A DNA stretch of 62,465 nt, filler included, from Stramenopiles sp. TOSAG23-2 (taxonomy: Eukaryota): assembly GCA_900128395.1 (NCBI GenBank). It is 7 parts of 7 records of this genome, joined end to end, with 100 filler letters (N's around TTAATTAATTAA, not from the genome) between each part and the next. Parts side by side here need not be neighbours in the genome. Positions count along the whole stretch, not along the records: positions 8,973 to 17,839 come from LT650157.1; 6 more parts are not named here. One strand, 5' to 3'. The position numbers and the translations under genes were made by a program. Of the stretch, positions 4,397 to 53,510 are shown one piece after another; the first letter of the stretch is position 1; each line of letters starts with the position of its first letter. The notes below the pieces were generated by a model, which saw only the letters and a list, made by a program, of their open reading frames with translations, was not told where the DNA came from and did not search any database.

Positions 4397-7300
4397 TCAC
4401 CTCCTTCCATTATTACTTTGTCTACCACTAAAACTACCACTGCTTCTTCTTCTTTCCATTCTTTTCATACGTTCAACCCGTTCTGTATATTTCTTTAATG
4501 AACTCTCATATGTTTTAGAAAAAACACCAAGTGTATTAAATGCTTTTGATACATCATATGTTTTTGGATCCTCACCAAAATATTGAGCAACAGTTACACA
4601 TAAACGGCCCATATCATCTAATTGTGTATGTAACATTTGAATTTTTCTCGAATCTTTTGATACAAATTCATTACATGCGGATGAAAATGCCATTTCCAAA
4701 AAATCACCTACATCATCTTCTTCAATGTGATTTGCATTACTAATACGCTCAACAGCTTCCATACCTGACTTCAAACGATTGAATTCTTTAACAATTTCAT
4801 TTCGACGTAATCTTGCAGCATTGCTTAAATCTTTTAACTCTTTTACCCACGATCCTGCTAAATTAATATTATTACCATTTTTTGCTTCTTCTGCTTCACT
4901 TTCAACTAAAAAATCCAACACAGTGGTCTTTTTATCCTGGCTTTTCGTCTGTGTCAATTTCAGCAAAGAATCCAATTTGAAGCCTCTTGCACCGCCTGCA
5001 TGCGTCCCTTGATTCATAGCATTTCCAATTGCTAAAACATTTCCCAATACTGATTTTAACGATTTAGAATCGGTTATGCTACGACATGCATTTGAAATGG
5101 TTGCAATCCGATTTGATATTTGTTTGAAATTATCATTAAATTGCAAAACGTATAGAAAAGTTTTACATTTTACTGGAAATTTGCTTGTTTTATTACATGC
5201 CAAAACCCACTGTTCTGCTTTACTTAACTTTGGCATATTGTTCTTTTTCATCACTTCAGTTCCATCTGGTGGCGATGCATTCCATTTCTTCTTGTTTAGC
5301 TTTAGAGTATTTAACACAGCTTTTGTCTCCAAGGGTGTTGGGCAAATATCTACTAATGTGGATACCTTTGCTGTTGTAAGTTTTTCTCGGTTCATTTCAC
5401 ACACCGCAGCAACAACATCATCAAACGTAGGAAATTGCTTATATTGTGCTAAACCAATTTCAATATTTTGAGTTCTTTTACCATCAATAGACGAACGTCT
5501 TCTTTTTTTCTCACCAGAATTACGACCATGTCCTTTTCCATTGCCTTTTTTTGTATTACTAGTTTTTGCAAATAATTGTTTCAACCTTGCGATATTATCA
5601 TCTTTGTTTGTATCTGCAGTACTTCCATTAACATTGGCCCATACAGAATCTTCCGGTACCTCTTCCATTTTATCCCAATGTAATTTCATTAAGTTTGACT
5701 TTGGTTTTGGAGTTGTTGTTATAGAAGATGCATTGCTGATGGTACCATTACCATCGCTATCAAAGAAATCACTGATATCAGCCGCCGAAATCTGAGCCAT
5801 CATCATTTTTTGTCGAACCGCTGGTGCAGGTATACCCATCGATAGCATCTTTTTAAACTTTAATAATTTGGGATTCATTGGTTTTGGTTTACTAACTTTT
5901 GTACCATTATTATTATTATTACTACTACTTTCACCAAAAAATGCATTTATCTCAGTTTGTGATATCTCAGCCATGATCATTTTTTGCCTTACTGCTGGTG
6001 GTGGTATACCCATGGAAAGCATTTTTTTAAACTTTAATAATTTGGGATTCATCGCCTTTTGCTGCGCTGGAGATTTATTTGAATTTCCATTTCCATTTCC
6101 ATTTCTATTTCTATTATTATTATTATTATTATCATTACCAAAAAATGCATTTATATCAGCTTGAGATATTTCAGCCATAATCATTTTTTGCCTTACAGCT
6201 GGTGGAGGTATACCCATTGATAACATTTTTTTAAACTTTGCTAATTTTGGATTAGCTTTTGTTTGTTTTAAAGACGACGTTTTATCATTTGCCATATTTG
6301 GTTGTAGATCTTGTTGGATTGCTTCATCTTCCCACATAGTTTCACGTGTTTTCTTATTGTAATAATACCATTTACCAGTCCCAGGATCTTTGCGTTTTCC
6401 ATCCCATTGTTTTACATTTTTATCCTTTAAATCATTATTCATATTTTGTGCAACAACGTTTTTAGTTGCCAATGCTTTTTCCTGCTGTACTGATGCAGCC
6501 TGTAATTGTTTAGAAGATTGCTGCTTGATACGATTGATAGTTTGGAAAAACTTTTCAATCTCTTGTGGTGGTACACGACCCATGATCATTTTTTGACGTA
6601 CACCAGGTGCAGGTACGCCAGCTTGAATCATTTTTAAAAATGGTTTTAAACGTGGATTAATACTATTAGAACCAATTTCTTGTACATTAGCACGCTGTTC
6701 TTTCATTTTTGATGCAGCGTGACGACGGAAAAATAAGTCAATGTCCTTTAATGGTATTCGTGCCTTTAACATTTTTTCCCGTACTGCACGTGGAGGCATC
6801 CCTCGTTTCAAAAAGGTTGTAAATTGATCTAATTTATTCGGCTGGCGTTTTCTTAAATTATCATCAGTATCAATTTCTGGGATAGGATTCATATTATTAT
6901 CGTTTTCATGATTCGGCTTCTTATTTTTATTTTTATCGATATATTCTTTTGCGTAATTCCTGCAAAATTTTTCCACCGATGATAATGGTATACGATCAAT
7001 AATCATCTGTTTTCGTACGGTTAATAATTGATTCCCATTATCCAATAGATTTCTATATTTTGTTAAATCAATTTCCTTTTGTTGGCCATTTTGCTGCTGT
7101 ATCTTTATTTGATTATCAACCACATCTGCCCATTGTGTTTCTTTTGTTTTTTTATTATAATAATAATAACGCCCGGATCTAGGATCTTTTCGTTTTCCAT
7201 CCCATTTTTTAGGAATTTCATTATTGTCCCGACTGTCATCCTTTTCCTTCATAGCCGCGCGTTTTTTTCCAGCACGTTTTATAGCATTTAATAAATTTTC

Positions 7301-11046: not shown

Positions 11047-14000
11047 ATGAGTGAGCAAGAAAAAACCGAGACGCAAGAACCCGTCCAAGAAGAACAAGAG
11101 AAGAAAGAAAAACAAGAAAAACAAGAAAAACACGAGGAGCAACAGGAGCTAGAAAAAATGGAACATGGGGAGGAGAAGGAGGAGGAAGAAGACTCGGATG
11201 AAGATTCTGGCGAAGTTGAAGCAGAGCATCTACATTTTGAGGGAGTAGATTATGGTCTTTTACCAAACGGGGATGTATATACAGAAGAAGGTGAATATGC
11301 GGGGAAATGGGATCCAACAAAGCAGAAAATAATGAAGGAAGAAGAAATTGCACACGAACACTTAAAACATAGACTAACATTTGCCCCCCAAGAATTAAAG
11401 GGCTTAGAAGGCTGTTTTGAGATGATTGACGAGGATAAATCAGGTACGTTAGATTTCAATGAAATTTCAAAAATGTTGGTTGTTGCTGGTTGTATAGTTA
11501 AAGACGAAGTATTATTAGACATTTTTCCAAACTCCGCAACAATAGGTCTTACTGTTAGAGAATTTATAAATGTCTGTTCCCGTAATAAAGACGATCCAGA
11601 AAAAGGGCCAGTAATTGATAGCATAATGAAAAGCGCAGAAAGATTTGCTCTGAAAACATTTAAGAAAGATGAAATATTAGATAAAGAAGAATTGGACCAA
11701 CTGCGTTTATTATTGCGTAAACATTCATATGGTACAACAGGATTTGACCCTACCAAAATATTTAAACGTTGGGATAAAGATAAAGATGGAATGTTAGATT
11801 TCGATGAAATGCATGATTTAATATTTTCGTTAGGGCCAGATCTATCTGAAATAGAATATGAACAATTTTTCCAATATTTAGATCATGATGGCGACGATTT
11901 TATACAAGAGATGCAGTTCTCAGCGTTTATAAGGAAAGAGACTGGCAAAATTGTTCGTAAAAAAAATCGCACGGTAACAAATGCACAAGGAGACAAACAT
12001 TTTATTGATGGTATGCGTGATGATCCTGGTGATGCGAAATTAAAACGTTTCGATGGACGTGCAACTGGTGACGGGAAATGGTCCGCAGATAATATTCTTG
12101 ATGAAAATGAAATTTTAACAGTGAAAAAAAGAATACGTGCAGCTGCATATTATGGGGCTGAAGGATGTGACGTAAGACGTCTATTTAACGAATGGGATAA
12201 AGATCACAATGGCACATTAGATAGGGAAGAATTAGAAGTTCAATTAAAACGTTGCTTGCCAAAATCAGGAATAACAACGGAAGAATTAACACAACTGATA
12301 GATAAAGTAGATACAGGCGGAGATGGAGAGATACAAGTAGAAGAGTTTGTAAAATTTGTTGAAACTAATCCCGAAAAAGTATTGAAATCAAATGGTCGAG
12401 AGACTATTGAATCAAAGCGTGACGTGAAGGAAATAGTTGAGAGCAGAGCCATGTTTTCCCCGGCGGAATTAGTAGAATTGCAAAAATCATTTCAAAAAGC
12501 CGATATTAATAATAATGGGGAAATAGAAGCAGATGAAATGAAAGCAATTTTTGACATATTTGATGCTGATTTATCCGATGAAGCATTGCAATCAATGATA
12601 AAACATGTAGATACAAATAATGACGGCGTAGTCGACTTTGGAGAGTTTATAATTATGTGCGCTAATGCAAAGAAAAATAAGATGCATGATAAAATATTTG
12701 ATAAATTGGCTGCTTTTGCACATATAGCTTCTGAAAAAGTAGGAAATGCGGATGATGTTTTAGATGCTACAGAATTAGACCAAATTCGTATACGCTGGCG
12801 TACACAGTCATATTCTACAAAGGGCTTAGACGTTGAAGGATTGTTTAAAATATTCGATAGGGATAAAGACGATAGATTAAGTTACGATGATTTGCACTAC
12901 AGCATGAAGATTCCAGGAGAATTGAGCGAGGAAGAATTTTCACAATTTTTTAATTATCTTGATCATGACGATGATGATTATGTAAGATTGAAAGAATTCA
13001 AAGCATTCATCATGGTTCGAAAAAGAGGTGTAAGAAAACGTGTTGATAAAGAAATGACACTAGCTATGTCAGGGTCTATGTTTAACGCAGGTGTCCGAGA
13101 CGATCTTGTATTAGATCCGATATCAGATGCTAAATGGAATCCAGATGGGGTGTTGGACGATGATGAAATTATGATGATCAAACGTAAAGTTCGTGCGGCG
13201 TCATATGGAACTGGGGGGCAAAACATTAAGAGATTATTTGCTCAATGGGATAAAGATCAGAGTGGAAACTTAGATTTAGTTGAAATAAGCACTATATTGA
13301 AAAAAATCTTGCCAAAGGCTGGAATATCAGATAAAGAATTGCAACAATTTTTGAAACTTTTGGATAAAGACGACGATGGTCAAATTAGTTTGCAGGAACT
13401 GGAAGACTTCTTAAAGCCAAAAGATGGTCAAAAATATATATCGGCGAAAAAAGCTGAAAAGATAAAAGCTCGAAAAGCACGTAAAGCTGAGCAGGAAAAA
13501 GCCCGTCTAGAAAGCTTGAATGATGCTAAAAGTAAGGCAAAAAAAATTATAATACAGAAAAAGCCAACAATTGATAATTCGCACCAAGAAACAGCGGAGT
13601 ATAAACTGGTAAATACCGTTAGAGACACGTTTGGCTTGCAAGAAATCAATGAGATGAAGAAGCAGTTTAGACGTCTAGATAAAGACGATTCAAAAAAACT
13701 GGACAAATCTGAAGTTGCACAAATGTTTAATGGTTTCAACGTAAAGATAAGCGAAGAGGAATTAAATGATATGATTAAATTGGTTGACATTGATGGAGTA
13801 AGTGATGGGCTAGTTGATATCAAAGAGTTTTTATACATGTGTGCATTAGCAAAGAAAAGTAAATATGCAGATAAGTTTGAGAAGTTATCTCATTCAGTGG
13901 AAAAACGAGCTGAAAAAAACCCTCCTAAACTCAGTGAATACGATTTGCAGCAGATTTTATTGAATTTCAGGGACGCAGCACGGACTTTACGCGGGATTGA

Positions 14001-15879
14001 TCCGTTAAAGCTATTTAGAAGACTTGATAAGGACAAAGATGGATTTTTAAATGATGCAGAGTTTAAACGAGCTGTAAAGTCTATTATGCCCGATTTCACT
14101 CCAGCCCAATTTAATGAATTTCAACGTTACATGAATACAACCGGAACTGGAAAGATCGGTATTGCTGAGTTTTGTCATTTTGTCGATCAAAAGCCTACTG
14201 TGAAGCGAACAGCAACATCAAAAATAGATGGATTCAGCTCTAATATGCGTGCTGGTGCGGCGGCGAAAAAAGTACAGGATGTTTTGCATGGAAAGTTGAA
14301 TTGGACAGACGATAAGGATTTGCCCCAAGAGCATATTTTACAAACGCAAAGTACAATTTTGTCACGATCATATAAAATGTATGGAACAGATTTAGAAGCA
14401 TTGTTTACATCTTGGGATAGAGATTTTGATGGAAAGTTAAGCTTCAAAGAGTTTTATTTGGGATTAAGAAAATATTTAGATCTATCATCGTTTTCAAGAA
14501 AGGAATATATTATGCTGTGGCAACATTTAGATCGCACAAAAAATGGTTTTATTGAACTAGATGAGCTAGAAGCATTTCTAGAAAGAGACTATTATGACTA
14601 CGGTGCATCAGAAGGAAGAACGTTATCGGCTAAAGAGCTTGACCGTTTAAAATTTCAAATAAAAATAAAAGCATATGGGACACATGGGGAAGACTTATAT
14701 CAATTATTTCAAAAATGGGATAAGGATGATAGTGGCACCATGTCAAAAAAGGAATTTAGAAATTTCTTGAATAAGATAATGCCAGGAGTGCTTTCCCCCG
14801 CTGAACTTTCCATCGTTCTGAACGAATTGGATAAAGAAGGCGACAACGAGATATCGTTTGCGGAGTTTGAAACATTCGTAAATGCTGAAAGCCATACATT
14901 AAATTCTAATAAAAAAGGAAAACTCAAACAAACTTATGACATAGAGCCTGACGTTTTTGATAAATTGATGCCTTCTGAATTATTACAAGCCTTAAAAATG
15001 TCACATTTCAAAAGAACAGAAGAAAAGGAACTAGACAAAGTCGTTGCTGAGCTTGGTATGACCTATGAAGATGAAGAAGAGGCGAAAAAGTTGAGAAAGG
15101 CATTCCCAAATGCTGAAGTCGAATGGGCGGGAAAAAAGAAAAATAAAGAGAGAGAAAAGGTAGAATATGCAAAGAAATTAAGAGATGCTGTTATCATACC
15201 GGAAGGAAGCGATGAGACATGGAAAGTACGTGATGATGATCCCGAAGAATTGCTGGCAACTTCACATAGAGTAGCATTGGCAACTGCACAAAAAAATAAT
15301 GTCAAAACTATGAATAAAAATGGCAGTGTGGATCGTTTTTTTGCTGAACCAAACGAGCAGAAGATATCAATTCCTCCCACACGAGGTTTTGTCCATGGTG
15401 TATTTGCCATGCCAAATATAATGAGCTTGCAACATGGTGGTGCATTGGCAGATGATTTTGATGTAAGTTGGAAAGAATTAAACGTAGATTATATAGATCT
15501 TGTATTATCAGAAAGACATCAATTACAGGAAATCATGGAAGCAGCAAAAATGGATCAAATTTACAATGATCAAAAAGTTTACCCACGATATCAATATGAA
15601 GAACACAACTCGCATGATAGATTTGTAGATACATTGACTGGAAGACGAGCATCCAAAGCAGCTCGTGATAAACAGAAATTATTAACAAAAGGAATGTCCA
15701 CTGATAGATTGTCTCCAACAAAATCATTTGGCACACAAACCGAGAAAAAGAAAAGAAAGAGGAGAAAAAAGAAGAAGCTAGGCACAATTATCCCATCGCC
15801 ACCAAAAGGGAATGCATCTGGTGCGATATTAGCCAGCAATTCACCAAGAGCAGGAAAAAATCTAGCTAAAACGAAGTAA
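11047..15879 (+). CDS. Giant multi-EF-hand calcium-binding protein (about 10 EF-hand pairs)
   Basis: Repeated DxDxxGxxxxxE loops (DEDKSGTLD, DKDKDGMLD, DHDGDDFIQ, DKDHNGTLD, DTGGDGEIQ, DINNNGEIE, DTNNDGVVD etc.) in a single 1610-aa ORF. Confidence 0.93.
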   Translation: MSEQEKTETQEPVQEEQEKKEKQEKQEKHEEQQELEKMEHGEEKEEEEDSDEDSGEVEAEHLHFEGVDYGLLPNGDVYTEEGEYAGKWDPTKQKIMKEEEIAHEHLKHRLTFAPQELKGLEGCFEMIDEDKSGTLDFNEISKMLVVAGCIVKDEVLLDIFPNSATIGLTVREFINVCSRNKDDPEKGPVIDSIMKSAERFALKTFKKDEILDKEELDQLRLLLRKHSYGTTGFDPTKIFKRWDKDKDGMLDFDEMHDLIFSLGPDLSEIEYEQFFQYLDHDGDDFIQEMQFSAFIRKETGKIVRKKNRTVTNAQGDKHFIDGMRDDPGDAKLKRFDGRATGDGKWSADNILDENEILTVKKRIRAAAYYGAEGCDVRRLFNEWDKDHNGTLDREELEVQLKRCLPKSGITTEELTQLIDKVDTGGDGEIQVEEFVKFVETNPEKVLKSNGRETIESKRDVKEIVESRAMFSPAELVELQKSFQKADINNNGEIEADEMKAIFDIFDADLSDEALQSMIKHVDTNNDGVVDFGEFIIMCANAKKNKMHDKIFDKLAAFAHIASEKVGNADDVLDATELDQIRIRWRTQSYSTKGLDVEGLFKIFDRDKDDRLSYDDLHYSMKIPGELSEEEFSQFFNYLDHDDDDYVRLKEFKAFIMVRKRGVRKRVDKEMTLAMSGSMFNAGVRDDLVLDPISDAKWNPDGVLDDDEIMMIKRKVRAASYGTGGQNIKRLFAQWDKDQSGNLDLVEISTILKKILPKAGISDKELQQFLKLLDKDDDGQISLQELEDFLKPKDGQKYISAKKAEKIKARKARKAEQEKARLESLNDAKSKAKKIIIQKKPTIDNSHQETAEYKLVNTVRDTFGLQEINEMKKQFRRLDKDDSKKLDKSEVAQMFNGFNVKISEEELNDMIKLVDIDGVSDGLVDIKEFLYMCALAKKSKYADKFEKLSHSVEKRAEKNPPKLSEYDLQQILLNFRDAARTLRGIDPLKLFRRLDKDKDGFLNDAEFKRAVKSIMPDFTPAQFNEFQRYMNTTGTGKIGIAEFCHFVDQKPTVKRTATSKIDGFSSNMRAGAAAKKVQDVLHGKLNWTDDKDLPQEHILQTQSTILSRSYKMYGTDLEALFTSWDRDFDGKLSFKEFYLGLRKYLDLSSFSRKEYIMLWQHLDRTKNGFIELDELEAFLERDYYDYGASEGRTLSAKELDRLKFQIKIKAYGTHGEDLYQLFQKWDKDDSGTMSKKEFRNFLNKIMPGVLSPAELSIVLNELDKEGDNEISFAEFETFVNAESHTLNSNKKGKLKQTYDIEPDVFDKLMPSELLQALKMSHFKRTEEKELDKVVAELGMTYEDEEEAKKLRKAFPNAEVEWAGKKKNKEREKVEYAKKLRDAVIIPEGSDETWKVRDDDPEELLATSHRVALATAQKNNVKTMNKNGSVDRFFAEPNEQKISIPPTRGFVHGVFAMPNIMSLQHGGALADDFDVSWKELNVDYIDLVLSERHQLQEIMEAAKMDQIYNDQKVYPRYQYEEHNSHDRFVDTLTGRRASKAARDKQKLLTKGMSTDRLSPTKSFGTQTEKKKRKRRKKKKLGTIIPSPPKGNASGAILASNSPRAGKNLAKTK

Positions 15880-15994: not shown

Positions 15995-16756
15995 ATATAT
16001 ATATTTTATTTAAAATTCTAAAATATCTGTGTACATCCCCTGTGTATTTGTATTAAAACAGTCGTCCAGCATTATACGACGTATATATATATATATAAAA
16101 AATTCTCTTACTTAAAATTTAAAAAGATTTTATTTACTCATAAATATATATAATATGTAAACACTAAAAACGATGAATACTTATAATAATATGTCAAAAG
16201 TAATTTCATAAAATGGAAAAGATATAACCGTATCCTCATGCAATTCCTTATATTGATTTCCGTCTTTAAAAGATCCCGTTATGCTTATGCCCCGGTCCTC
16301 ATCATGGGAGTTCTCAATTCTTGTATCGGTATAGATATTTTTTTTTGATTGACCGACGTGTGTCAGAATAGAGTCATTCCTGATGTGTTCCTCATGCAAT
16401 AATTTTATAACCGTGTGACCAATAGAGACGTATATATATATATATACTTCGTCGTAATATATATATATATATTATATATAATACTGTACCGTATATCATG
16501 TATATATATATATATATATATACATGTGTATAATTAGGGTGTATATGAGTTGTGTATGTACGCACAGTCGTTTCAACACACAAATTTTCTCTATACTACT
16601 TTAATGACTTTTCCCTCCTACCTATAGAGAGGATATTATTATTATAAAATTTAACATTTATTTACATCGATTTTGATATACTACAGTATATGTATATAAG
16701 TTGTGTAAAAACCAAACATATTTTGTACTATAGAAAACAATAGAATAACTTCAACC

Positions 16757-17824
16757 ATGTCGCGAGTTATAGGTAACATTAATAAATATTCTGCAATAAC
16801 ACCATCCTGTGGCACTTTGGTATTGATTGGTGGTGGAAATTATATGAATATGTTGCGAACGGTTGTTCAATTAGCAGGTGGTAAAGAAGATATTAAAATT
16901 TGTATAATTTGCACAGCAATGGAGCCGCGACACGTTGGCGCAGCATTTATGATGATGAAGGATTCTTTTGAAAGCATAGGCGTGAAGATGGATAACATTG
17001 TTTCATTACATGCAGCTGATCCTAGCGAAACGCTGGTTGAAGATTTTTGTGATGATATAGATTCAGCAACGTTGGTTTGGTTAGACGGTGGTAGGCAAAG
17101 AACGGTTGTTCAATTAGCAGGTGGTAAAGAAGATATTAAAATTTGTATAATTTGTACAGCAATGGAACCGCGACACGTTGGCGCAGCATTTATGATGATG
17201 AAAGATTCTTTTGAAAGCATAGGCGTGAAGATGGATAACATTGTATCATTACATGCAGCTGATCCTAGCGAAACGCTGGTTGAAGGTTTTTCACTACTAT
17301 ATCTAAGTCGTTGCAACCAAACCAATCTGCCACCATGGCAATGGAGACTATCTGATTCCTATTTGAATACACCGGTGATATCTGCATTACATAGATTATT
17401 AGGTCGAAATGGTGTTATTGCTGGAACATCTGCTGGTGCATCATGGATAGCATCGTACTTAGCCAGAGGTGATTCAGAATCTAATGTACCAATTGTTGGC
17501 GATCATATAATTGGCTCTGGACTTGTAAAAAACGTTGCTGTAGATCAACATTTATTAAGACGTAATCGACAATTTCAAATGTTGGAAATAGTAAATAAAA
17601 ATCCTACTTTATTGGGCATCGGGTTGGACGAGGCTACGGGTCTTGTCATACAAAATGGCAGAGGTATTGTTATTGGGAGTTCCTATGTCGTTTTTTATGC
17701 ATCTCAACAATATTTAAAGGAAATGCAACAGAGTCCATGGCATGAAGTTGGTGGTCCATTTATTTTTTTAAATCCCGGTAGCGTAATTGATTTGCAACAT
17801 CGAGTTATTTTACAAAAGCGATGA
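16757..17824 (+). CDS. cphB: Cyanophycinase (peptidase S51, CphB-like); contains a 243-bp in-frame duplication, native length about 274 aa
   Basis: GTLVLIGGG, GGRQ, nucleophile GTSAGA, DQH..RRNR, GIGLDEATGL motifs (Ser-His-Glu triad). Confidence 0.88.
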   Translation: MSRVIGNINKYSAITPSCGTLVLIGGGNYMNMLRTVVQLAGGKEDIKICIICTAMEPRHVGAAFMMMKDSFESIGVKMDNIVSLHAADPSETLVEDFCDDIDSATLVWLDGGRQRTVVQLAGGKEDIKICIICTAMEPRHVGAAFMMMKDSFESIGVKMDNIVSLHAADPSETLVEGFSLLYLSRCNQTNLPPWQWRLSDSYLNTPVISALHRLLGRNGVIAGTSAGASWIASYLARGDSESNVPIVGDHIIGSGLVKNVAVDQHLLRRNRQFQMLEIVNKNPTLLGIGLDEATGLVIQNGRGIVIGSSYVVFYASQQYLKEMQQSPWHEVGGPFIFLNPGSVIDLQHRVILQKR

Positions 17825-17839
17825 TGTATGAATTTATTA

Positions 17840-17939
17840 NNNNNNNNNNNNNNNNNNNNNNNNNNNNNNNNNNNNNNNNNNNNTTAATTAATTAANNNNN
17901 NNNNNNNNNNNNNNNNNNNNNNNNNNNNNNNNNNNNNNN
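17840..17939. other. Artificial contig linker
   Basis: N44-TTAATTAATTAA-N44. Confidence 0.99.
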
Positions 17940-20020: not shown

Positions 20021-20574
20021 ATTTAGTTTAGCCCAGAGTGGCCCGCACCCTGGGTTAGAGGGCGACAATTATAAACGGTATATTAAAACTAGAAACTCCA
20101 TGCCTGCGTGAGAGTATTAAGTACATATAATAATATGAGGCTACTGAGAAAATCACCAAACATAAAAAAATATACCTCTCCCTGGGCTCTCTCAATTTTT
20201 CATAACACATTATTATCGAACGTTCATACCATACGTAACGAATCATTTCCCTAAATCATTTTGCTGTCAGATATCCTTTGATATTCACATAGTATGATCT
20301 TGTTTCTAGTCCGTTGACTTCATAAACTCGTAATATCAAATATAGTTCTAGTCCGTGATTGACACTTCGTAAAACGCATAACATAAACGGTCTTATTATT
20401 ACCTTAATATCCTAAACACTGGATAAAGTAATAATCTATATCTCTTTGTTGATATTTAGTGAATTTAGCTATACTACCAGGTACTAAGTATTGTCCAAAA
20501 TCGTACTTATGGTTTATAGCGTGTGATATAAAATTTAGTATTAGTTGGTATAATTAACATAAAAACATGCATAT

Positions 20575-26885: not shown

Positions 26886-27606
26886 AGTGTAATCAGATAA
26901 GGACCAACGCCATTGGTACGATAATACAGGAGCTCGATGAGGATTGGCAATACCTTTTGGTTTTCCTGTAGTTCCACTGGTATAGACAACAAAGGATAAA
27001 TTATCTAATGTAGCACGAGGAGCAGCAATTCGCTTTGCCTCCAATTGAGCAGCGTCAAGGTTTAAATCAGTTAATAGTGCCATGACTGTATCATAATTGT
27101 CATCAACTATAAATGTTGGTGCATTATCAACATTTTTTAATTTCGTTGCAAATGCTCGTGTTGTTAAAATAACTTTTTTTTAATTTCGTTGCAAATGCTC
27201 GTGTTGTTAAAATAACTTTTACTTGCGAGTCATCCACTACTTCACGAATTTTATTCAATGGAAATGAACTTTCAATAGTAACGAAACACCCACCAGCAGA
27301 CATGGCAGCCATCAAACTGATCATGTAATTCACAGATGGTTCCATATATACACCAACAGGACTGTCCAAACCAACATTAAATCTTGTACGTAAATGTTTC
27401 CCTAAAGCAAGTACTCGTAAATTTAATTCTTCATATGTTAACGAACGTTTATCATCAACTACTGCGACAGCATCAGGTGTAAGCAACGCTTGCCTATGAA
27501 ATTGTTCATGTAATGGTAATAATCGAAATTCTTCCGTACGTGTTTGTTTTGGCAATCTTTCTAACCATGTATTTAAATATGCATCTGTAGAAGTTATATT
27601 GGACAT
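26886..27606 (-). CDS. NRPS-like adenylation-domain protein (ATRR/NPS10-like), N-terminal part; frameshift caused by a 43-bp tandem duplication; truncated by contig end
   Basis: LHEQF.RQA..TPDAVAV, A1 motif SLTYEELN, A3 motif YTSGTTGKPKG followed by IANPHRAPVLSY; deleting the 43-bp duplicate (27138 vs 27181) joins the two ORFs in frame. Confidence 0.85.
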
Positions 27607-27920: not shown

Positions 27921-29596
27921 CTAGCTTGAAAAAAGCTTTTTGGCTTCTTTAATTTCTTTCTTTGTTTTCAATTTTTTTAACTTTGTGTGTGTTTTTTTAT
28001 AAAAAATCAATCCAAGACCAGGTTTATCTTTGTAAAATACGCAAACAGTTTGGTCATAACTGGCGGCTGCCTTAGCCTTTTTCCCCGAATCAAAACATGA
28101 ATTCCCATTGTGGCCATTTAAATATATGTTGAAAATTTTTCTATTTTTTTCCTTTTCTGCTGCTAATTTTTGCTTCTTATTTGCAACACTTTTCTTCACA
28201 CGATAAAGATTTTTTGCTTTAAAGGCAGGCTGTTGTTTACGTGCTTTAATTTCAGGCCTTTGGTGATAATCCTTTTCGTATTGTCGTCTTTTTGCTTCAC
28301 GATGTTGTCGTTGGTGTTCAAGTCTATTTTCACGATATTTCATTTTTTCACGATATTTTTGTTGGTATGCTACTCTATTTTCACGATATTCTGAATCTGT
28401 CGCATACTTCAATTTCATCTTACGATTTTTTAAAAGCCTTTTTTCCTCCTTGGTTAAACCAGTACGGAAATTTTCATTTACTTCCCTCATTTCTTGCAAA
28501 CTCATTTTATTTTCCGAGCAAAACCATAGCAATAGCATCAATGCCCAAACATCATATAATGCATTATGATTTTGTTGGTTTTCTACCATTTTTTCAAACA
28601 GCAAAACCATAGCAATAGCATCAATGCCCAAACATCATATAATGCATTATGATTTTGTTGGTTTTCTACCATTTTTTCAAACTCAATAGGACAAAAATTT
28701 CCACATGAAATTTCTCCCCCTTCTTTAAACCATGATGAAATTATATCCGCAACTTTTTCTCCACTATTAAATCTATCTCCTAATGTGTCCATGGCAACAC
28801 TAGATTTATTTTCTTTAGAATTTAACAAAATTCTGAAAATGTTTACTGAATTTAAAATTGTGCATTTTGGCCAAATAAATTTATAACGCTTGAACAATGC
28901 TTCCATTTTACCAGTGTCGACTTTACCTCCTTGTTCAATAATTAAAACATCCTCTGCTTTTTCATTCCCAAAAAGCTCGTTTTTAATGGTTTCAATTATT
29001 TCGCGAGAAATTTCCGGTCGAGGGTTCTCTTCATCCTTTGCTTCATGCAACAAAATATCGTAAATACGATGGAATCTATGAACAAATTGTTCCCTCGGTA
29101 TAAACCCACTACTTTCACGATCTTTCAAATCGTGAACATAGTGGTTGTGACTTGTTACACCATCTTCTGTAACAATCAAATAGCTTAATTCATAGACGGA
29201 AAACCAATCCAAGTTTTTCCTATTTTTCTTATTTAAAATGAGAAATTCCAAATCTATAATAATCGACCTTTTTTTGATGGGAATACCAACAATCAAATAG
29301 CTTAATTCATAGACGGAAAACCAATCCAAGTTTTTCCTATTTTTCTTATTTAAAATGAGAAATTCCAAATCTATAATAATCGACCTTTTTTTGATGGGAA
29401 TACCATTGCTGTTACAAAACTTTGTCCAAAATGCCCAAAAGTTTTTCGGTGTTTTCATGAGTTCAAGTTTTGCCTTAACCCATGCTGCTGTCATTTCTAC
29501 CTTGTTGCTGCTATTACTACTACTACTACTACTGGAGCTACTACTACCAACCGAGGTAAGTCTTTTTCTTTTTTTTCTATTTCCTTTTTTTCCCAT
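27921..29596 (-). CDS. DEDDh (DnaQ-like) 3'-5' exonuclease with basic C-terminal tail; about 491 aa after removing 117-bp and 83-bp duplications
   Basis: ExoI IIIDLEF, following VYELSY, ExoII-like EQGGKVD, ExoIII HNALYDV; duplicates at 29171/29288 and 28517/28600. Confidence 0.7.
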
Positions 29597-31708: not shown

Positions 31709-34502
31709 ATGTCAACAAATATTAATACAAATAATACCACCACCAATGGTAAAACAATATGTAACACCTTCACTTTACAAGAACACATGTATCTACAGAC
31801 GATATTACTTCATATGAATGCATCTGAAAACCTATCTACTGTTACGGAAGACTCGAACAATTCTAATAACATACAAAACGACGAAACAAATGTAACTAAC
31901 AACTACGTAAATAAATTATGGAGTTATGCGGATATTCTATACACACCAGATATTATACAAGTTGTACGGTGTGAAAATACGAAGGATGTCCAGGAAATAA
32001 AATCATGCAACTTGCACTTAACAAAAAAAAAAATGGAAGCACATTGTAAATGCACTTGTTATTATAACAATTTACAACCCTTCAAAGACATGAAAACAAA
32101 TATTGAACTATCCAAAAGAAGTGGTCCTAGTATGCAACCAACAGAACGATATGAATGGTTTTATCTACAAAGTTTACGACGTATTATTTGTTCTCGTGAA
32201 TTCAACGGTGGGCCATTACAATATGTAAAAGGTGGGAATTTAGTAGTAACTATCGGTGGTAAAAAAACCAAACCAAATGGTAATATTTTACATTTAAGTA
32301 CATACTCCAATGTATGCATTGGATCAAAAATTGAGGTATTAGATTCCGTTCAATCAAAGACACCAAAAGAAACAATTCAAATAGTGCAGGCAAAACCGTT
32401 TGTAGAATCTCTTGATCGTGGTGTTGTTAATCTTAAAGCGAATCAACGGTTTACACTCCCATCGTCAACAAACGAATACAATTCCAGAAAAAAGGAAGGT
32501 CTTGGAAATGAAAAACATCGTTTTCAAAACGAGCCATCTACAAGCAAAATTATGGGTATGATAGGCATGGCATGCAGCGGTAAAAATGGTGCCATCGCAA
32601 ATGTTGCTAATGACGTAGGTGTTACGATACGTTGGGGCGAGGAAGACGATTTACAAGCCTTTCAAACAATTCAAGACAGGAGAAATAATAATATCAATAT
32701 GAACGTAGATACGGGAAGCGATAATAATAACAATATTAATAGCGACATAACCGAAAAAAACAAGAAAAAAATTACCATGAATAAGACCACAAACAATCAA
32801 AAAGGTTTTGGATATTCGAATAACAATATCAATTGGATTACAGTTACATTTGACGAGGAATGTATGAACGTACCGGTTGATGCTACGTACAAAGATATTT
32901 ACAATTCCAAACGAGATCAAAGGAAAAATGGTGAATATAAAACTACCAATTGGAACCTTGCAATTCATAAATGGTTACGGAAATTACCAACAATTAAAAA
33001 TTTACAATTCCAAACGAGATCAAAGGAAAAATGGTGAATATAAAACTACCAATTGGAACCTTGCAATTCATAAATGGTTACGGAAATTACCAACAATTAA
33101 AAATTGTAACAACGATTGTAACTTACCAAGTAGATGGAGAGACTTCAAAGTTATGTTAACAAATTTGGATTTTAAACTGATACGCCCAGAATACAACGTT
33201 GGCAACGGTGTCGAAAAAAAGAAAACGTTTTTTTTCCAACATTGTTTTTTTTCTCCAAACCATACGTATTTATGGAAGTATATACGCAGACGTTCTGCAA
33301 AAGTGTCTAAACAATGGAAATTACAACCGATTTACCACCATAAATACAACATGCAATCAAATGACGGCAGTAGTTGCAAGAAAACAATGCAACGCGTTAA
33401 TCCACGAGCTAAGGTCAATTACATTACTGGATATGTATCCATCGATAAGAACAAAAAGATACAAGGTGTAACTGCATGGGAGACAAAACAAATATACAAT
33501 AAATTTGTACCTGTATCGATCTCCAGAAATTGTTATGTATGCCACGCTACATATCGATCCGATACGAAACAATTTTCAATTGCGTTTGAAGATATAACCA
33601 ACAACAATGACGGCGAGTTAAGTGCTGAGGAAAAAAACAAAGTAATGCAAGATAAGAAAGATATATTACAACATTATGTACAACAAGGTAATCGTGTATA
33701 TGGGATCGGTTTAAAATTATTAGCAACTATCGATTCCAATGTAAAGGTTCAACGAAACAAAGTGTTATTTAAATTAGAAAATTCGGAAACGTATGAGGAA
33801 CACGATATACCGACAGCAGGATTGCAATTAACAATTGAACATATATGCAAAGGATGTAACACGTGTAATAACTTTGTAAATCAACACAATATTATCAACG
33901 CGTACAACCGTTTATCGCATAATGAATTTTTTGAATTTTACAAAATATATCGAAAAGACATATCCAATATGGTATATTACATGTTATCGTCTCATAAGGT
34001 AGTTGATTTTACTCTTTCAGCAAAAAATCATCACAAAGCATTTTTAAAAGTAAAAAAAAAAGTAAAAGTAGGAAATGGTAAAGAAAGTACGGAAGTAGAC
34101 AAAAGTATAGGTATGATAGGCGCATTTTACGAATTTGTGTTGGATTATAGTGGACCCGATAATATATTTCATCAATACAACGATACCAAGGATGGTGGTA
34201 AATTGAAGTGGAGAAGAACAGAGAAACTAAAAGATGATTTCACTTGGCCTGTATTGACAGATATGTTTAATAAGAAAAATAAATGTAATGTTATTGCAAT
34301 TAAGTTCAGCAAATGGCTTCGAATAATGAATGAAAGATTAGGTAATGGGAAAAAATGGAATGGGCAACGATGGATAACGGAGGGCATAAACAACGAATCC
34401 AAGAACCCTTCCTCTTTTTTTCGGTCTTTACGTAACCACATTCTAACACTCTCTAGGAAGGTTTATAATTTCTTATATTTCCCTACTATATATAAAAATT
34501 AA
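31709..34502 (+). CDS. Large orphan protein (about 896 aa after removing a 103-bp duplication), Cys/His clusters
   Basis: Two long ORFs join in frame on deleting the duplicate 32897/33000; motifs HCKCTC, CYVCH, HICKGCNTC; no family recognised. Confidence 0.6.
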
Positions 34503-34557: not shown

Positions 34558-34920
34558 TTATTTCCTTTTTACTCGAATCTTGTACATACGTTTATTATTA
34601 GCTTTTTTCTTTTTTATTTTCCTTTTTTTCTTTTTCCAATCTCCACTATTATTATTATTATTAATATTATTAGTATTATTATTCATACCACCATCATCAT
34701 TTCGTCCTTGGAATGTGTTCCGATTATTATCGATATGTTGCATATTAAATGATGCATTCATATTCCTACCATCTAACATCATATCACTGCGGCGTCTTTT
34801 TTTATTTATTTTCAACGAAGAAGAAGAAACATTTCCAGCTTGTTGTTCCATTAATTTTGCATAATGTTTATACGACTTCTCCGCACAAGATGGGAAGGAG
34901 AAAAAAAGCCAGAAATGCAT
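34558..34920 (-). CDS. Hypothetical basic/Asn-rich ORF, partial paralog of 35116..35520
   Basis: Shares AEKSYKHYAKL..QQAGN.SSSSLKINKKR.RSD with the neighbouring ORF; no clear start. Confidence 0.3.
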   Translation of the reverse strand: MHFWLFFSFPSCAEKSYKHYAKLMEQQAGNVSSSSLKINKKRRRSDMMLDGRNMNASFNMQHIDNNRNTFQGRNDDGGMNNNTNNINNNNNSGDWKKKKRKIKKKKANNKRMYKIRVKRK

Positions 34921-35115
34921 TGGTGTAAGATTGTGTCTCTGGGATAGAGAAAGTTACCTACCAATGATACTTCCGGTTCACAAACTATATATATTTAATG
35001 ATGAGTAAAATCTTTTAATTATTTAAATATAAGAGAATTATTTATGATATAATATGATTATATTATAAAATATTATAACTTAGATTTTAACCATCATTTT
35101 ATATATACTCTTATT

Positions 35116-35520
35116 TTATTGTACCTGTACTAAATCAAGAAAGTCCTTCTTGATGCCCGACTTTCCTTGTTGCCTCTGATATTTTTTTTTAACTCGAACC
35201 TTTATTGTTGTGCCTTTCTTAATACCACCCCTCCTCATCATACCTTCTTTTGTAGCATTTGTATTGTCCCCTTTTCGCCTGTCCCTCATCCCAATATTTA
35301 TGAAGGAGCAGTTGTTATTTGATTCAACAACTACTCCAACATACACGCTCCCTTCATTTACCTCAGCATAGTCAATAAGACTTTTAGTACGATCAATTGC
35401 TTCTACGTTGTTATCACTGCGGCCTCTTTTTTTATTTATTTTCAACGAAGAAGAAGAACCATTTCCAGCTTGTTGTTGCGTTAATTTTGCATAATGTTTA
35501 TACGACTTCTCCGCAATCAA
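35116..35520 (-). CDS. S1-like (OB-fold) RNA-binding domain fragment
   Basis: EVNEGSVYVGVVVESNNNCSFINIG...EGMM...IKKGTTIKVRV resembles the S1 pattern (G....G.V......G.FV.IG...G.......G..V.V.V); 5' end scrambled at contig edge. Confidence 0.5.
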   Translation of the reverse strand: MIAEKSYKHYAKLTQQQAGNGSSSSLKINKKRGRSDNNVEAIDRTKSLIDYAEVNEGSVYVGVVVESNNNCSFINIGMRDRRKGDNTNATKEGMMRRGGIKKGTTIKVRVKKKYQRQQGKSGIKKDFLDLVQVQ

Positions 35521-35708
35521 GAAAGTCCTTCTTGATGCCCGACTTTCCTTGTTGCCTCTGATATTTTTTTGTAACTCGAACCTTTATTGTTGTGCCTATC
35601 TTTATAAGACTTTTAGTACGATCAATTGCTTCTACGTTGTTATCACTGCGGCGTCTTTTTTTATTTACTTTCAACGAAGAAGAAGAACCATTTCCAGCTT
35701 GTTGTTCC

Positions 35709-49023: not shown

Positions 49024-49767
49024 TTATTTACGAAGCTCACATAACGTATTATGCTCGTCGCCGGTTTTAATTTTCTTGCCACAATAAGTGCAATAATTAT
49101 CTCCGTTTCTTCTTTCCAAGGCAGGAAAATTTTGTGTATCCAGTCGTTGCTTGACATGTATTGCAGACATTTGATAATCATTAAATTTTACACTTTTTGC
49201 AAGCTTATAAAAACCTGTACGTCGTTGTTTCTTTTTTATGTCATAAAATTTTAATTGACACTCATCTTCATCAATAATATTTTTATTATGATCGTTGTTG
49301 ACAAATTTAACATGTTCAATGCCACAAATCCTTTTTTGATTTGCTTTTGTATACCAAACACTTTTATAAAATCTTGTTCCCTTATCCTCCTCATATAAAG
49401 AAATTGTACCAATATCATTATTATTATTATTATTATTACTCTCAATTAGAAGAGATTGATAGATTATTTTGTCTTTTAATCTATCAATCTCTTCTACTAA
49501 TTTACGATTTTTTTCATCCATAGAGAGCAAAACTTTTTCAAATTTGTTTTTTAACTCTTCCATCATCTTCCTTCGTATTACATTTTCTTCCTTTAATCTT
49601 TCTACCTCCAGTAATTCTTCTTCTTTATTTTTCAATGCTTCCTCTTTTTTTTTCAGCTCATCTTGTTTGAATTCCAACTCATCTTGTTTGGATTCCAACT
49701 CATCTTGTTTGGATTTCAACTCCTTACTTGTATTTCCATCCATCTTTGTCATATAATTCACATGCAT
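49024..49767 (-). CDS. Hypothetical coiled-coil protein with heptad repeats and C-terminal CxxC/H/C cluster
   Basis: (ELxxKQD)x3 heptads; YCTYCG...H..LC. Confidence 0.55.
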   Translation of the reverse strand: MHVNYMTKMDGNTSKELKSKQDELESKQDELEFKQDELKKKEEALKNKEEELLEVERLKEENVIRRKMMEELKNKFEKVLLSMDEKNRKLVEEIDRLKDKIIYQSLLIESNNNNNNNDIGTISLYEEDKGTRFYKSVWYTKANQKRICGIEHVKFVNNDHNKNIIDEDECQLKFYDIKKKQRRTGFYKLAKSVKFNDYQMSAIHVKQRLDTQNFPALERRNGDNYCTYCGKKIKTGDEHNTLCELRK

Positions 49768-51286: not shown

Positions 51287-53510
51287 TCACAACAACGGCA
51301 AACTGGTACTGTTTTTTGTCTTTTTCATCGCCTCCAACATCCTTTGTGTACTTTCTAAATTATGCATTTGTTGTTCTTGATCCGCTAATACTTGTCGACT
51401 TTCACGCAATTGTTTATTTTGATATCGAACTTTCTTACGCAATGCTTGTATTTCTTCATCTCTTGCTAAATATTGTGTACTACGTGATTCTTTTAAATTC
51501 GTTCGTAGTTCTTCTTCTTGCAATTGCATTCGTTTCAATTCTTTTGTTTGATTTTGATATCGATTACGGACATCATCGTATTTTCTACGTATTTTCTCAT
51601 TCTTCTCATGTTCAACACGTAGCTTTTCATTTTTGTTTGATTTTGATATCGATTACGGACATCATCGTATTTTCTACGTATTTTCTCATTCTTCTCATGT
51701 TCAACGTGTAGCGTTTCATATTCTTTTCTTAATTTTTGTTCATTTATCATGTGTTCTTCGAGTTGACTACGTAATTCAGATTGCATTCGTATTAAATCTG
51801 CTCGTTCCGTAGCATTTCTTTCTCGTTCTCGTGATGCAATTAAAACCGTTTCCGCAAGCTCATCGCGTTGTCTTTTTGCATCTGCAAATTGTTTTGTTTT
51901 TACTTTGACTTCATTTGAAACTTTACCTAAATGTTGTTTTGTACGTCTAAACTCTTCATTTGAAATTTCTAAACTTTCTGTTAATTTTGCTTTCTTCGTT
52001 TCTAACAAATTTACTGCTGCGACAACATCTTTATACTTTTTTCTTGATTCACGTATTTGTTCTCTTAACATAATCAATTCCTTGTCCATTGATGAATTTC
52101 TAGTCGATACATCTTCTAACATTTTTTCTGTTCTTATGACACTCTCTTGCAATGTCTCGCGTTCTCTTCCAGCTGCTTTCAATGCTTCAGATAAACTCTC
52201 ATTTTTTTCCTTTGAAGTTTCTAATTCTCGTTTCAATTGCTTTTCTACATTTATTTGCTTTTCTTTATATCGTGTCCATTCTGTACATTCTTTCAATAAA
52301 CGTTCAACTTCATTTTCAGCCGTAAATGCTTTTTTCTCAATTTTAATTCTTTCATTATCAATTTCGTCTAATTTTTTTTGTGATTCACGTGATAATTCAA
52401 TCAATTTAATATGATATTCATGCATTTTATTTTCAATTCTATCTTTTAGTTCTTCAATTTCAGATACCATACGTTTATTGTCCCTTGTTGCGCTCGATAT
52501 TGCACTTTCCAATCGACGCTCGCGCATGCTCCTTGCATGTGCTTCGTCTCGCTTTGCATTTGTCAATTCTCGTTCAGCAGCACGTTTCTCTTCCAATTTA
52601 TTTCGACGTTCTGTTTCTAATTTCGCTACACGTTGTTCCAATAAACGTTCTGCTGCTTCTGTTTCTTTTCTGACTTCATTAGCTTGATCTAATTCATGTC
52701 GTAATCTTTCATTTAAACGTTCGGCTTTCAATTTATCTCCAGTAATATTACTTAATTTTGAAGCTATAGAATTCATATCTTTCTTTTTCTTACGTAAATC
52801 TTCGGTAGCATCTTTCAATTGTTCTTGTGCGGTAGTTAATTCAATAATTTTGAAGCTATAGAATTCATATCTTTCTTTTTCTTACGTAAATCTTCGGTAG
52901 CATCTTTCAATTGTTCTTGTGCGGTAGTTAATTCAACGCGCATGGCATTTAATTCCGCTTCTTTTGCAGCTATACTCGATTCGAATAATGCAGTATTTTC
53001 CCCTTGCATTCGTTCAACTTTTTCTTCGAAAAATGCAACTTGATTCTTCAACTCTTGTGCTTTTTTCGTCTTTTCATCTAAGCTTTTTTCCGCTTTATCT
53101 AAACGTTCTTTTAAATCTTTTTTCTCTACTTTCAGTTGATCTATTTCCCATAATTTTTCTTTATCTTTTGTTTGAATATCTGTCAATTCAGCTTTTAAAT
53201 CATGTAATTTATCACGTTTTTCATTTAACTTTTCCTTTACTTCTTCTAATGCATTCCGTAAAACTTCTGCATGTGATTTAAAGCCATCGTTTGTTTTTGT
53301 TTTGCCATTCTCATCATTGTTTTTTCCTTGCGAACGAATAGATATATCCTTGATCACATGTTTTGCAACTAATTTGTCCTTGCTTGGCAGTGTACGTCCC
53401 AGACGCACAGGTTTTACACGTAGTAGAACCTGTTTCGTCTTGATATGTACCGGAAGGACATATTTGCTCGTTCTTGCTACTTGCATCTTTACATGAATAT
53501 CCTTGTTCAC
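51287..53510 (-). CDS. Long coiled-coil protein (about 680 aa or more), 5' truncated, split by 92-bp and 89-bp duplications
   Basis: Three ORFs join in frame after deleting duplicates at 52753/52845 and 51542/51631. Confidence 0.75.

Follow-up and report, generated by a model that had tools for sequence, protein, structure and literature searches.

What kind of event could give a protist genome a stretch of DNA that is the base-for-base complement of a neighbouring stretch without being reversed? The question is raised by a locus of Stramenopiles sp. TOSAG23-2 (assembly GCA_900128395.1), which was analyzed within a window of 62,465 nucleotides. This window, the whole stretch of DNA considered here, consists of seven pieces of 8.8 kb that are sorted by size and joined by six artificial linkers (44 N, a 12-nt stop linker and 44 N; one of them lies at 17840-17939). 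The original prediction held that 45 nt at 17292-17336 on the plus strand (block 1) are the exact complement, without reversal, of 17049-17093, and a direct comparison verified this at 45/45 positions. Simulation of 20 windows with an order-3 Markov model gave longest unreversed-complement matches of only 16-19 nt, so that a match of 45 nt is not attributable to chance. In the real window, unreversed-complement pairs longer than 16 nt occur exactly twice, both of them 45 nt long, and with a low-complexity filter the next longest match is 16 nt. All letter permutations, forward and reversed, were also searched over the whole window (filtered; top two each) and none produced a match longer than 21 nt besides the two 45-mers.

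Block 1 is part of a 355-aa open reading frame (16757-17824, plus strand) that is composed of a 274-aa cyanophycinase-like peptidase of family S51 (Pfam Peptidase_S51; best protein match P0001, 274 aa, a cluster of 29 members) and 81 artefactual codons. The tandem repeat that had been described for this frame (16857-17099 and 17100-17342) is present in the file. Copy 1 (16857-17098, plus strand) carries an Asp codon (GAT) and copy 2 (17100-17341, plus strand) a Gly codon (GGT), and between them stands one extra base at 17099, probably a gap filler, where the natural sequence has a T and runs on into the gene. Over the 192 nt preceding block 1, the copies of this 243-nt offset repeat differ at five places. 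Four differences are synonymous (16912/17155 C/T, 16924/17167 G/A, 16960/17203 G/A and 17002/17245 T/A) and the sole amino acid difference is Asp/Gly at 17043/17286 (A/G), all as previously noted. As a real duplication, however, the repeat did not stand, as it proved to be two alleles placed end to end by the assembly, and the GAT>GGT change is a natural allele and not a mutation in a second copy.

Independent sequences were used to decide whether the block and the duplication belong to the organism. Marine metagenomes and polyA libraries are among the runs in which the stretch occurs, and the best of these runs contains at most 0.74 of the sampled words of 16560-17839. Four of the 24 listed runs were compared as Logan contigs, in which rare variants are lost and which can demonstrate presence rather than absence. 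Contigs of X1 (DNA, depth 301), X3 (DNA from another study, depth 863) and X15 (polyA RNA) pass from 17093 straight to 17337 and leave out the intervening 243 nt, with no loose ends at the joint. No contig of the four runs covers 17094-17336, and the depth over 17119-17333 is 0 in all of them; for the fourth run, X9, no contig was placed although 0.65 of the sampled words are present. One of the two DNA runs may be the source of the assembly itself and hence not independent; independence holds for the RNA run and for the second study. X1 and X3 are identical to the window over 16560-17093 (0 differences) and thus match copy 1. The G that distinguishes copy 2 stands ahead of the natural 45-mer in X15 and also in both metagenome loci that were found (L001 and L002), each of which has a single copy and lacks block 1 on either strand. 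The suspicion of a software artefact voiced in the original prediction therefore gained support from contigs of three of the four runs and from all relatives that cover the site, which read naturally.

The protein relatives provide the same picture. P0001 lacks the 81 extra residues, and all 15 listed members of its 29-member cluster have a single copy and read naturally into the WRLSDSY motif, which is the very reading predicted to result when block 1 is complemented back. The peptide encoded by block 1 occurs in 0/149 stored proteins. Exact look-up of six window reading frames found 0/6 in the protein collection, so the absence of the two block-bearing proteins from it says little. The Asp/Gly site is covered by 13 listed proteins of the cluster, ten with Gly and three with Asp. 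Asp is accompanied by a downstream Ile (3/3), and a downstream Val, the residue of the window, by Gly (3/3 listed proteins), a linkage which identifies copy 1 and copy 2 with its downstream sequence as two real haplotypes. Each allele is found as a single copy, Asp in X1, X3 and three proteins and Gly in X15, L001, L002 and ten proteins. A further oddity of copy 2 is the A at 17245 (T in copy 1), which is complementary to the letter that X1, X3, X15, L001 and L002 have there; this may reflect the same error acting on a single base of a flipped piece, or a rare allele. Both the block and the duplication are present in the file and absent outside it and, judged by the sequences compared, they are not a real feature of the organism.

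A scan of the whole window for further complement-only matches, proposed earlier as a check, did return a second 45-nt pair on another contig piece. Block 2 (34405-34449, plus strand) is the unreversed complement of 34891-34935 at 45/45 positions and is likewise an artefact, here standing in place of the genuine end of a gene for 876 aa. The affected reading frame (32877-34502) has one cluster of relatives (P0121, 876 aa, 54 members), to which it is 99% identical up to block 2 and different thereafter. The complement of 34405-34449 encodes the last residues and the stop codon of P0121. At the protein level, the only level at which block 2 was compared, the un-complemented form is read by 12/12 members that cover the site among the 15 of 54 that are listed; of the remaining three, one carries a diverged version of this tail and two stop short of the site. 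The P0121 gene as a whole occupies 31709-34502 (plus strand), has no NCBIfam family and no precomputed Pfam domain, and is split by a 103-nt repeat at 32897-33105, which is absent from the P0121 relatives. The two blocks are alike in that the wrong copy lies inside a contig piece and the right copy at a misjoin.

The two blocks also share a precise geometry. Each is flanked on both sides by exactly five bases that are identical between the wrong and the right copy, which gives 5+45+5 = 55. The 55-mer with block 1 (17287-17341, plus strand) lies inside the second contig piece, whereas its natural copy (17044-17098, plus strand), which matches X1, X3, X15, L001 and L002, starts right after the last allele difference and ends the first contig piece. 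The 55-mer with block 2 (34400-34454, plus strand) lies inside a contig piece as well, and its natural copy (34886-34940, plus strand) starts exactly at the misjoin where a match to 35412-35515 ends. Furthermore, the 243-nt repeat opens with an identical run of exactly 55 nt (16857-16911), directly followed by the first allele difference, and from the last such difference to the end of copy 1 there are again 55 nt. The putative contig boundary between the copies is accordingly made up of 55-nt ends and one extra base. These four 55-nt stretches ending at branch points have the look of vertices in a k = 55 de Bruijn graph, and we infer that 17287-17341 is the vertex at which the two allele paths rejoin. 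For single-cell data, 55 is the largest default k of the assembler SPAdes. Pooled marine single cells have been assembled with a chain of assembler, scaffolder and gap filler in at least one published example (PMC5128809, as far as its available text describes the procedure).

A software artefact at a 55-mer, rather than biology, is the explanation that we favour, at a probability of about 97%. The gene is present once with two alleles, which would form a bubble between two 55-mers in a k = 55 graph. The assembler would write 'upstream plus allele 1' and 'allele 2 plus downstream' as two contigs, and a scaffolder would then link the two across a single filler base (17099), so creating the false duplication of 243 nt. 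The inner 45 bases of the 55-mer in the second contig would then have been taken from the opposite strand, reversed but left uncomplemented. The simplest cause would be that these 45 bases stood in lower case when the contig was flipped by a reverse-complement routine that translates upper case only. As a sequence that is reversed without being complemented is the unreversed complement of the truth once the contig is flipped, such a routine would yield the observed letters. To simulate this, L002 was taken in minus-strand orientation, the 45 nt were masked and an upper-case-only flip was applied; window positions 17252-17436 were reproduced with 0 mismatches. The simulation proves that the flip is sufficient and not that it is the cause, as the outcome follows from the identity itself. 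The 55-mer at the start of the repeat (16857-16911) also lies inside a contig piece, yet it is uncomplemented, and the explanation thus requires that the first piece stayed unflipped. The graph, the scaffolding step, the lower-case masking and the program at fault are in this sense reconstructed from their traces, and for the masking step in particular we hold a modest preference. Within the same artefact explanation, a strand-handling bug in an assembler or mismatch corrector is possible but somewhat less probable. Letters of the opposite-strand twin of a graph vertex would have been inserted uncomplemented at mirrored positions, which results in the same letters and fits both the 55-mer geometry and the absence from the run contigs. 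Why the margins are 5 nt wide and why only some vertices are hit would have to be explained separately under this route, and both routes fit the available evidence alike.

The duplication itself has a described counterpart. In heterotype false duplication (PMC8081667), two haplotypes likewise stand end to end in a scaffold and mimic a tandem duplication, with allele variants between the copies. At this locus, the haplotype variants exist as single-copy alleles and the junction between the copies has no support in the contigs of the four runs, and the 243-nt duplication belongs, as a small case, to heterotype false duplications as the accessible part of that source defines them. It differs from the cases described there in its length of only 243 nt, in being bounded by the 55-mers of a short-read graph and in its complemented 45-nt core, a type of block which that part of the source does not describe. 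The literature search covered papers and found none that describes a complemented core or a corresponding bug; supplements, software manuals and source code lay outside the search and may describe it. It is likely that these sites represent a systematic pipeline bug which silently rewrites 15 codons at graph vertices, visible twice in 62 kb and not found in print.

Explanations outside this class were weighed against the same observations. The original prediction had also considered a deliberate in-silico edit, for example a planted control or a watermark, and both blocks being error-free and exactly 45 nt long would suit such an edit. Nevertheless, the two blocks share not only their length but also their place, each being centred in a 55-mer of which its contig has two copies and which adjoins a misjoin, and an editor would have had to choose graph vertices as targets, which makes this option very unlikely. 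Extremely unlikely is a real molecule, made by a polymerase that copied 45 nt with the new strand parallel to its template, be it in the cell or in the course of whole-genome amplification, and present at a level that the Logan contigs dropped. Synthesis in parallel direction has been claimed for PCR (PMC4304224), but in the text available to us the claim rests on primers that already bear the designed sequence and has no bearing on genomes. Short-range template-switch mutations (PMC9435742) are similar to block 1 in that a short block is derived from nearby sequence and placed between normal flanks. As presented in the accessible text, however, these known switches yield in-place inversions or reverse complements and are present in reads, whereas block 1 is unreversed and absent from read-derived contigs: it is covered in 0/4 runs, and contigs of three of the four join across it. 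Two such events of identical length, both centred in 55-mers, point instead to a constant in a piece of software.

An error in colour-space (SOLiD) decoding can turn a stretch of sequence into its unreversed complement, and this had been put forward as another option. Two colour miscalls of equal value would complement all bases in between, and each block indeed corresponds to exactly two colour changes, both of value 3. Such a pair of equal changes holds, however, for any complemented block. The changes fall at colours 5 and 50 of the 55-mer in both blocks, whereas miscalls at random would give blocks of varying length and type. Both blocks (2/2) are 45 nt long and of the complement type, and matches for the other two colour-type swaps do not exceed 14 nt in the same direction. 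As a decoding error would neither fix length and position within a 55-mer nor limit the swaps to one of three types, this is the least likely of the explanations considered.

Other parts of the window show irregularities of assembly as well. Nine exact head-to-tail repeats of 79-118 nt were observed, at 28517/28600, 29171/29288, 32897/33000, 37618/37727, 38385/38491, 39115/39192, 42451/42551, 52753/52845 and 55369/55465, with an offset equal to the repeat length within 3 nt and several of them inside open reading frames. They are probably unmerged contig overlaps; the one that was compared with relatives (32897) is absent there. At a contig end, near-identical pieces of 50-110 nt, repeated two or three times, form a mosaic over 34782-35708, which looks like misjoined or chimeric contig ends. 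At 51535-53486 (minus strand), two coiled-coil reading frames lie across the 92-nt repeat 52753/52845, where one ends and the next starts with the same residues, and probably constitute one gene frameshifted by the repeat. Two frames at 26886-27606 (minus strand), which judging by a motif we take to be pieces of an adenylation domain, are broken near a 43-nt offset repeat (27133/27176) and cut by a contig end.

Blocks whose partner copy is missing were also searched for. An order-4 Markov scan was weak for this purpose, as it ranked block 2 at 42 and block 1 at 5263 of 61,500 windows. Its top-ranked candidate (20369-20413) lies outside any long reading frame. The second-ranked candidate (49204-49248) was rejected, as its sole homolog (P0150) matches the window's own frame, and 45-nt complements tried over 49150-49329 always lowered the alignment score, from 613 to at most 557. 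A search for 45-nt complements that remove a stop codon gave 18 groups of matches, none of which was singled out and most of which lay where genes end naturally or in shadow frames, and was uninformative.

Once the artefactual codons are set aside, the real gene at the first locus encodes, as far as sequence comparison can tell, a marine protist's cyanophycinase-like peptidase of 274 aa. Residues 21-234 of P0001 align to the cyanophycinase structures 3en0, 7uqw and 7uqv in the PDB (E value 7.5e-20). The GTSAG, DQH and G.DE motifs of the cyanophycinase CphB (peptidase family S51) are kept in P0001. Residues S144, H184 and E211 are invariant in 11 aligned sequences and align to 3en0; presumably they are the catalytic Ser, His and Glu of the S51 active site. 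The gene differs from CphB in its TIGR02069 score of 102.2 bits, under the curated cut-off of 126.6, and in its location among eukaryotic genes, and cleavage of cyanophycin by the encoded protein is putative. Genes of eukaryotic kind in the window encode an EF-hand protein, Fcf1 and a nucleotide-sugar transporter; the protein of many EF-hand pairs (1610 aa, 11047-15879, plus strand) is encoded directly upstream of the peptidase gene. The peptidase gene itself (16757-17824, plus strand) is free of introns, is found in polyA RNA and has 29 near-identical records. Among the other 119 matches listed for P0001, identity is 32-50%, and wherever an organism is named it is a bacterium. These names and identities provide a lead to a transfer from bacteria, for which the gene is a candidate. 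Such transfers are reportedly treated in one study of fungi (PMC3612039). If a transfer did take place, one may speculate that the peptidase could let a grazer digest cyanophycin.

Biologically, block 1 is without weight, as it is absent from the organism as far as independent sequence shows. Its consequences concern the predicted proteins. Two genes in the window were given a wrong protein, one through a stretch of 15 residues beside a conserved motif and the other through a false C-terminus, with no frameshift or N to flag the error, and one of them also received a false duplication of 81 codons. As a block is visible only where a partner copy lies nearby, two blocks in 62 kb are a lower bound. 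Other findings from this assembly can be screened in a simple way for the 5+45+5 signature, and odd short stretches and exact head-to-tail repeats in the assembly deserve caution before they are given a biological reading.
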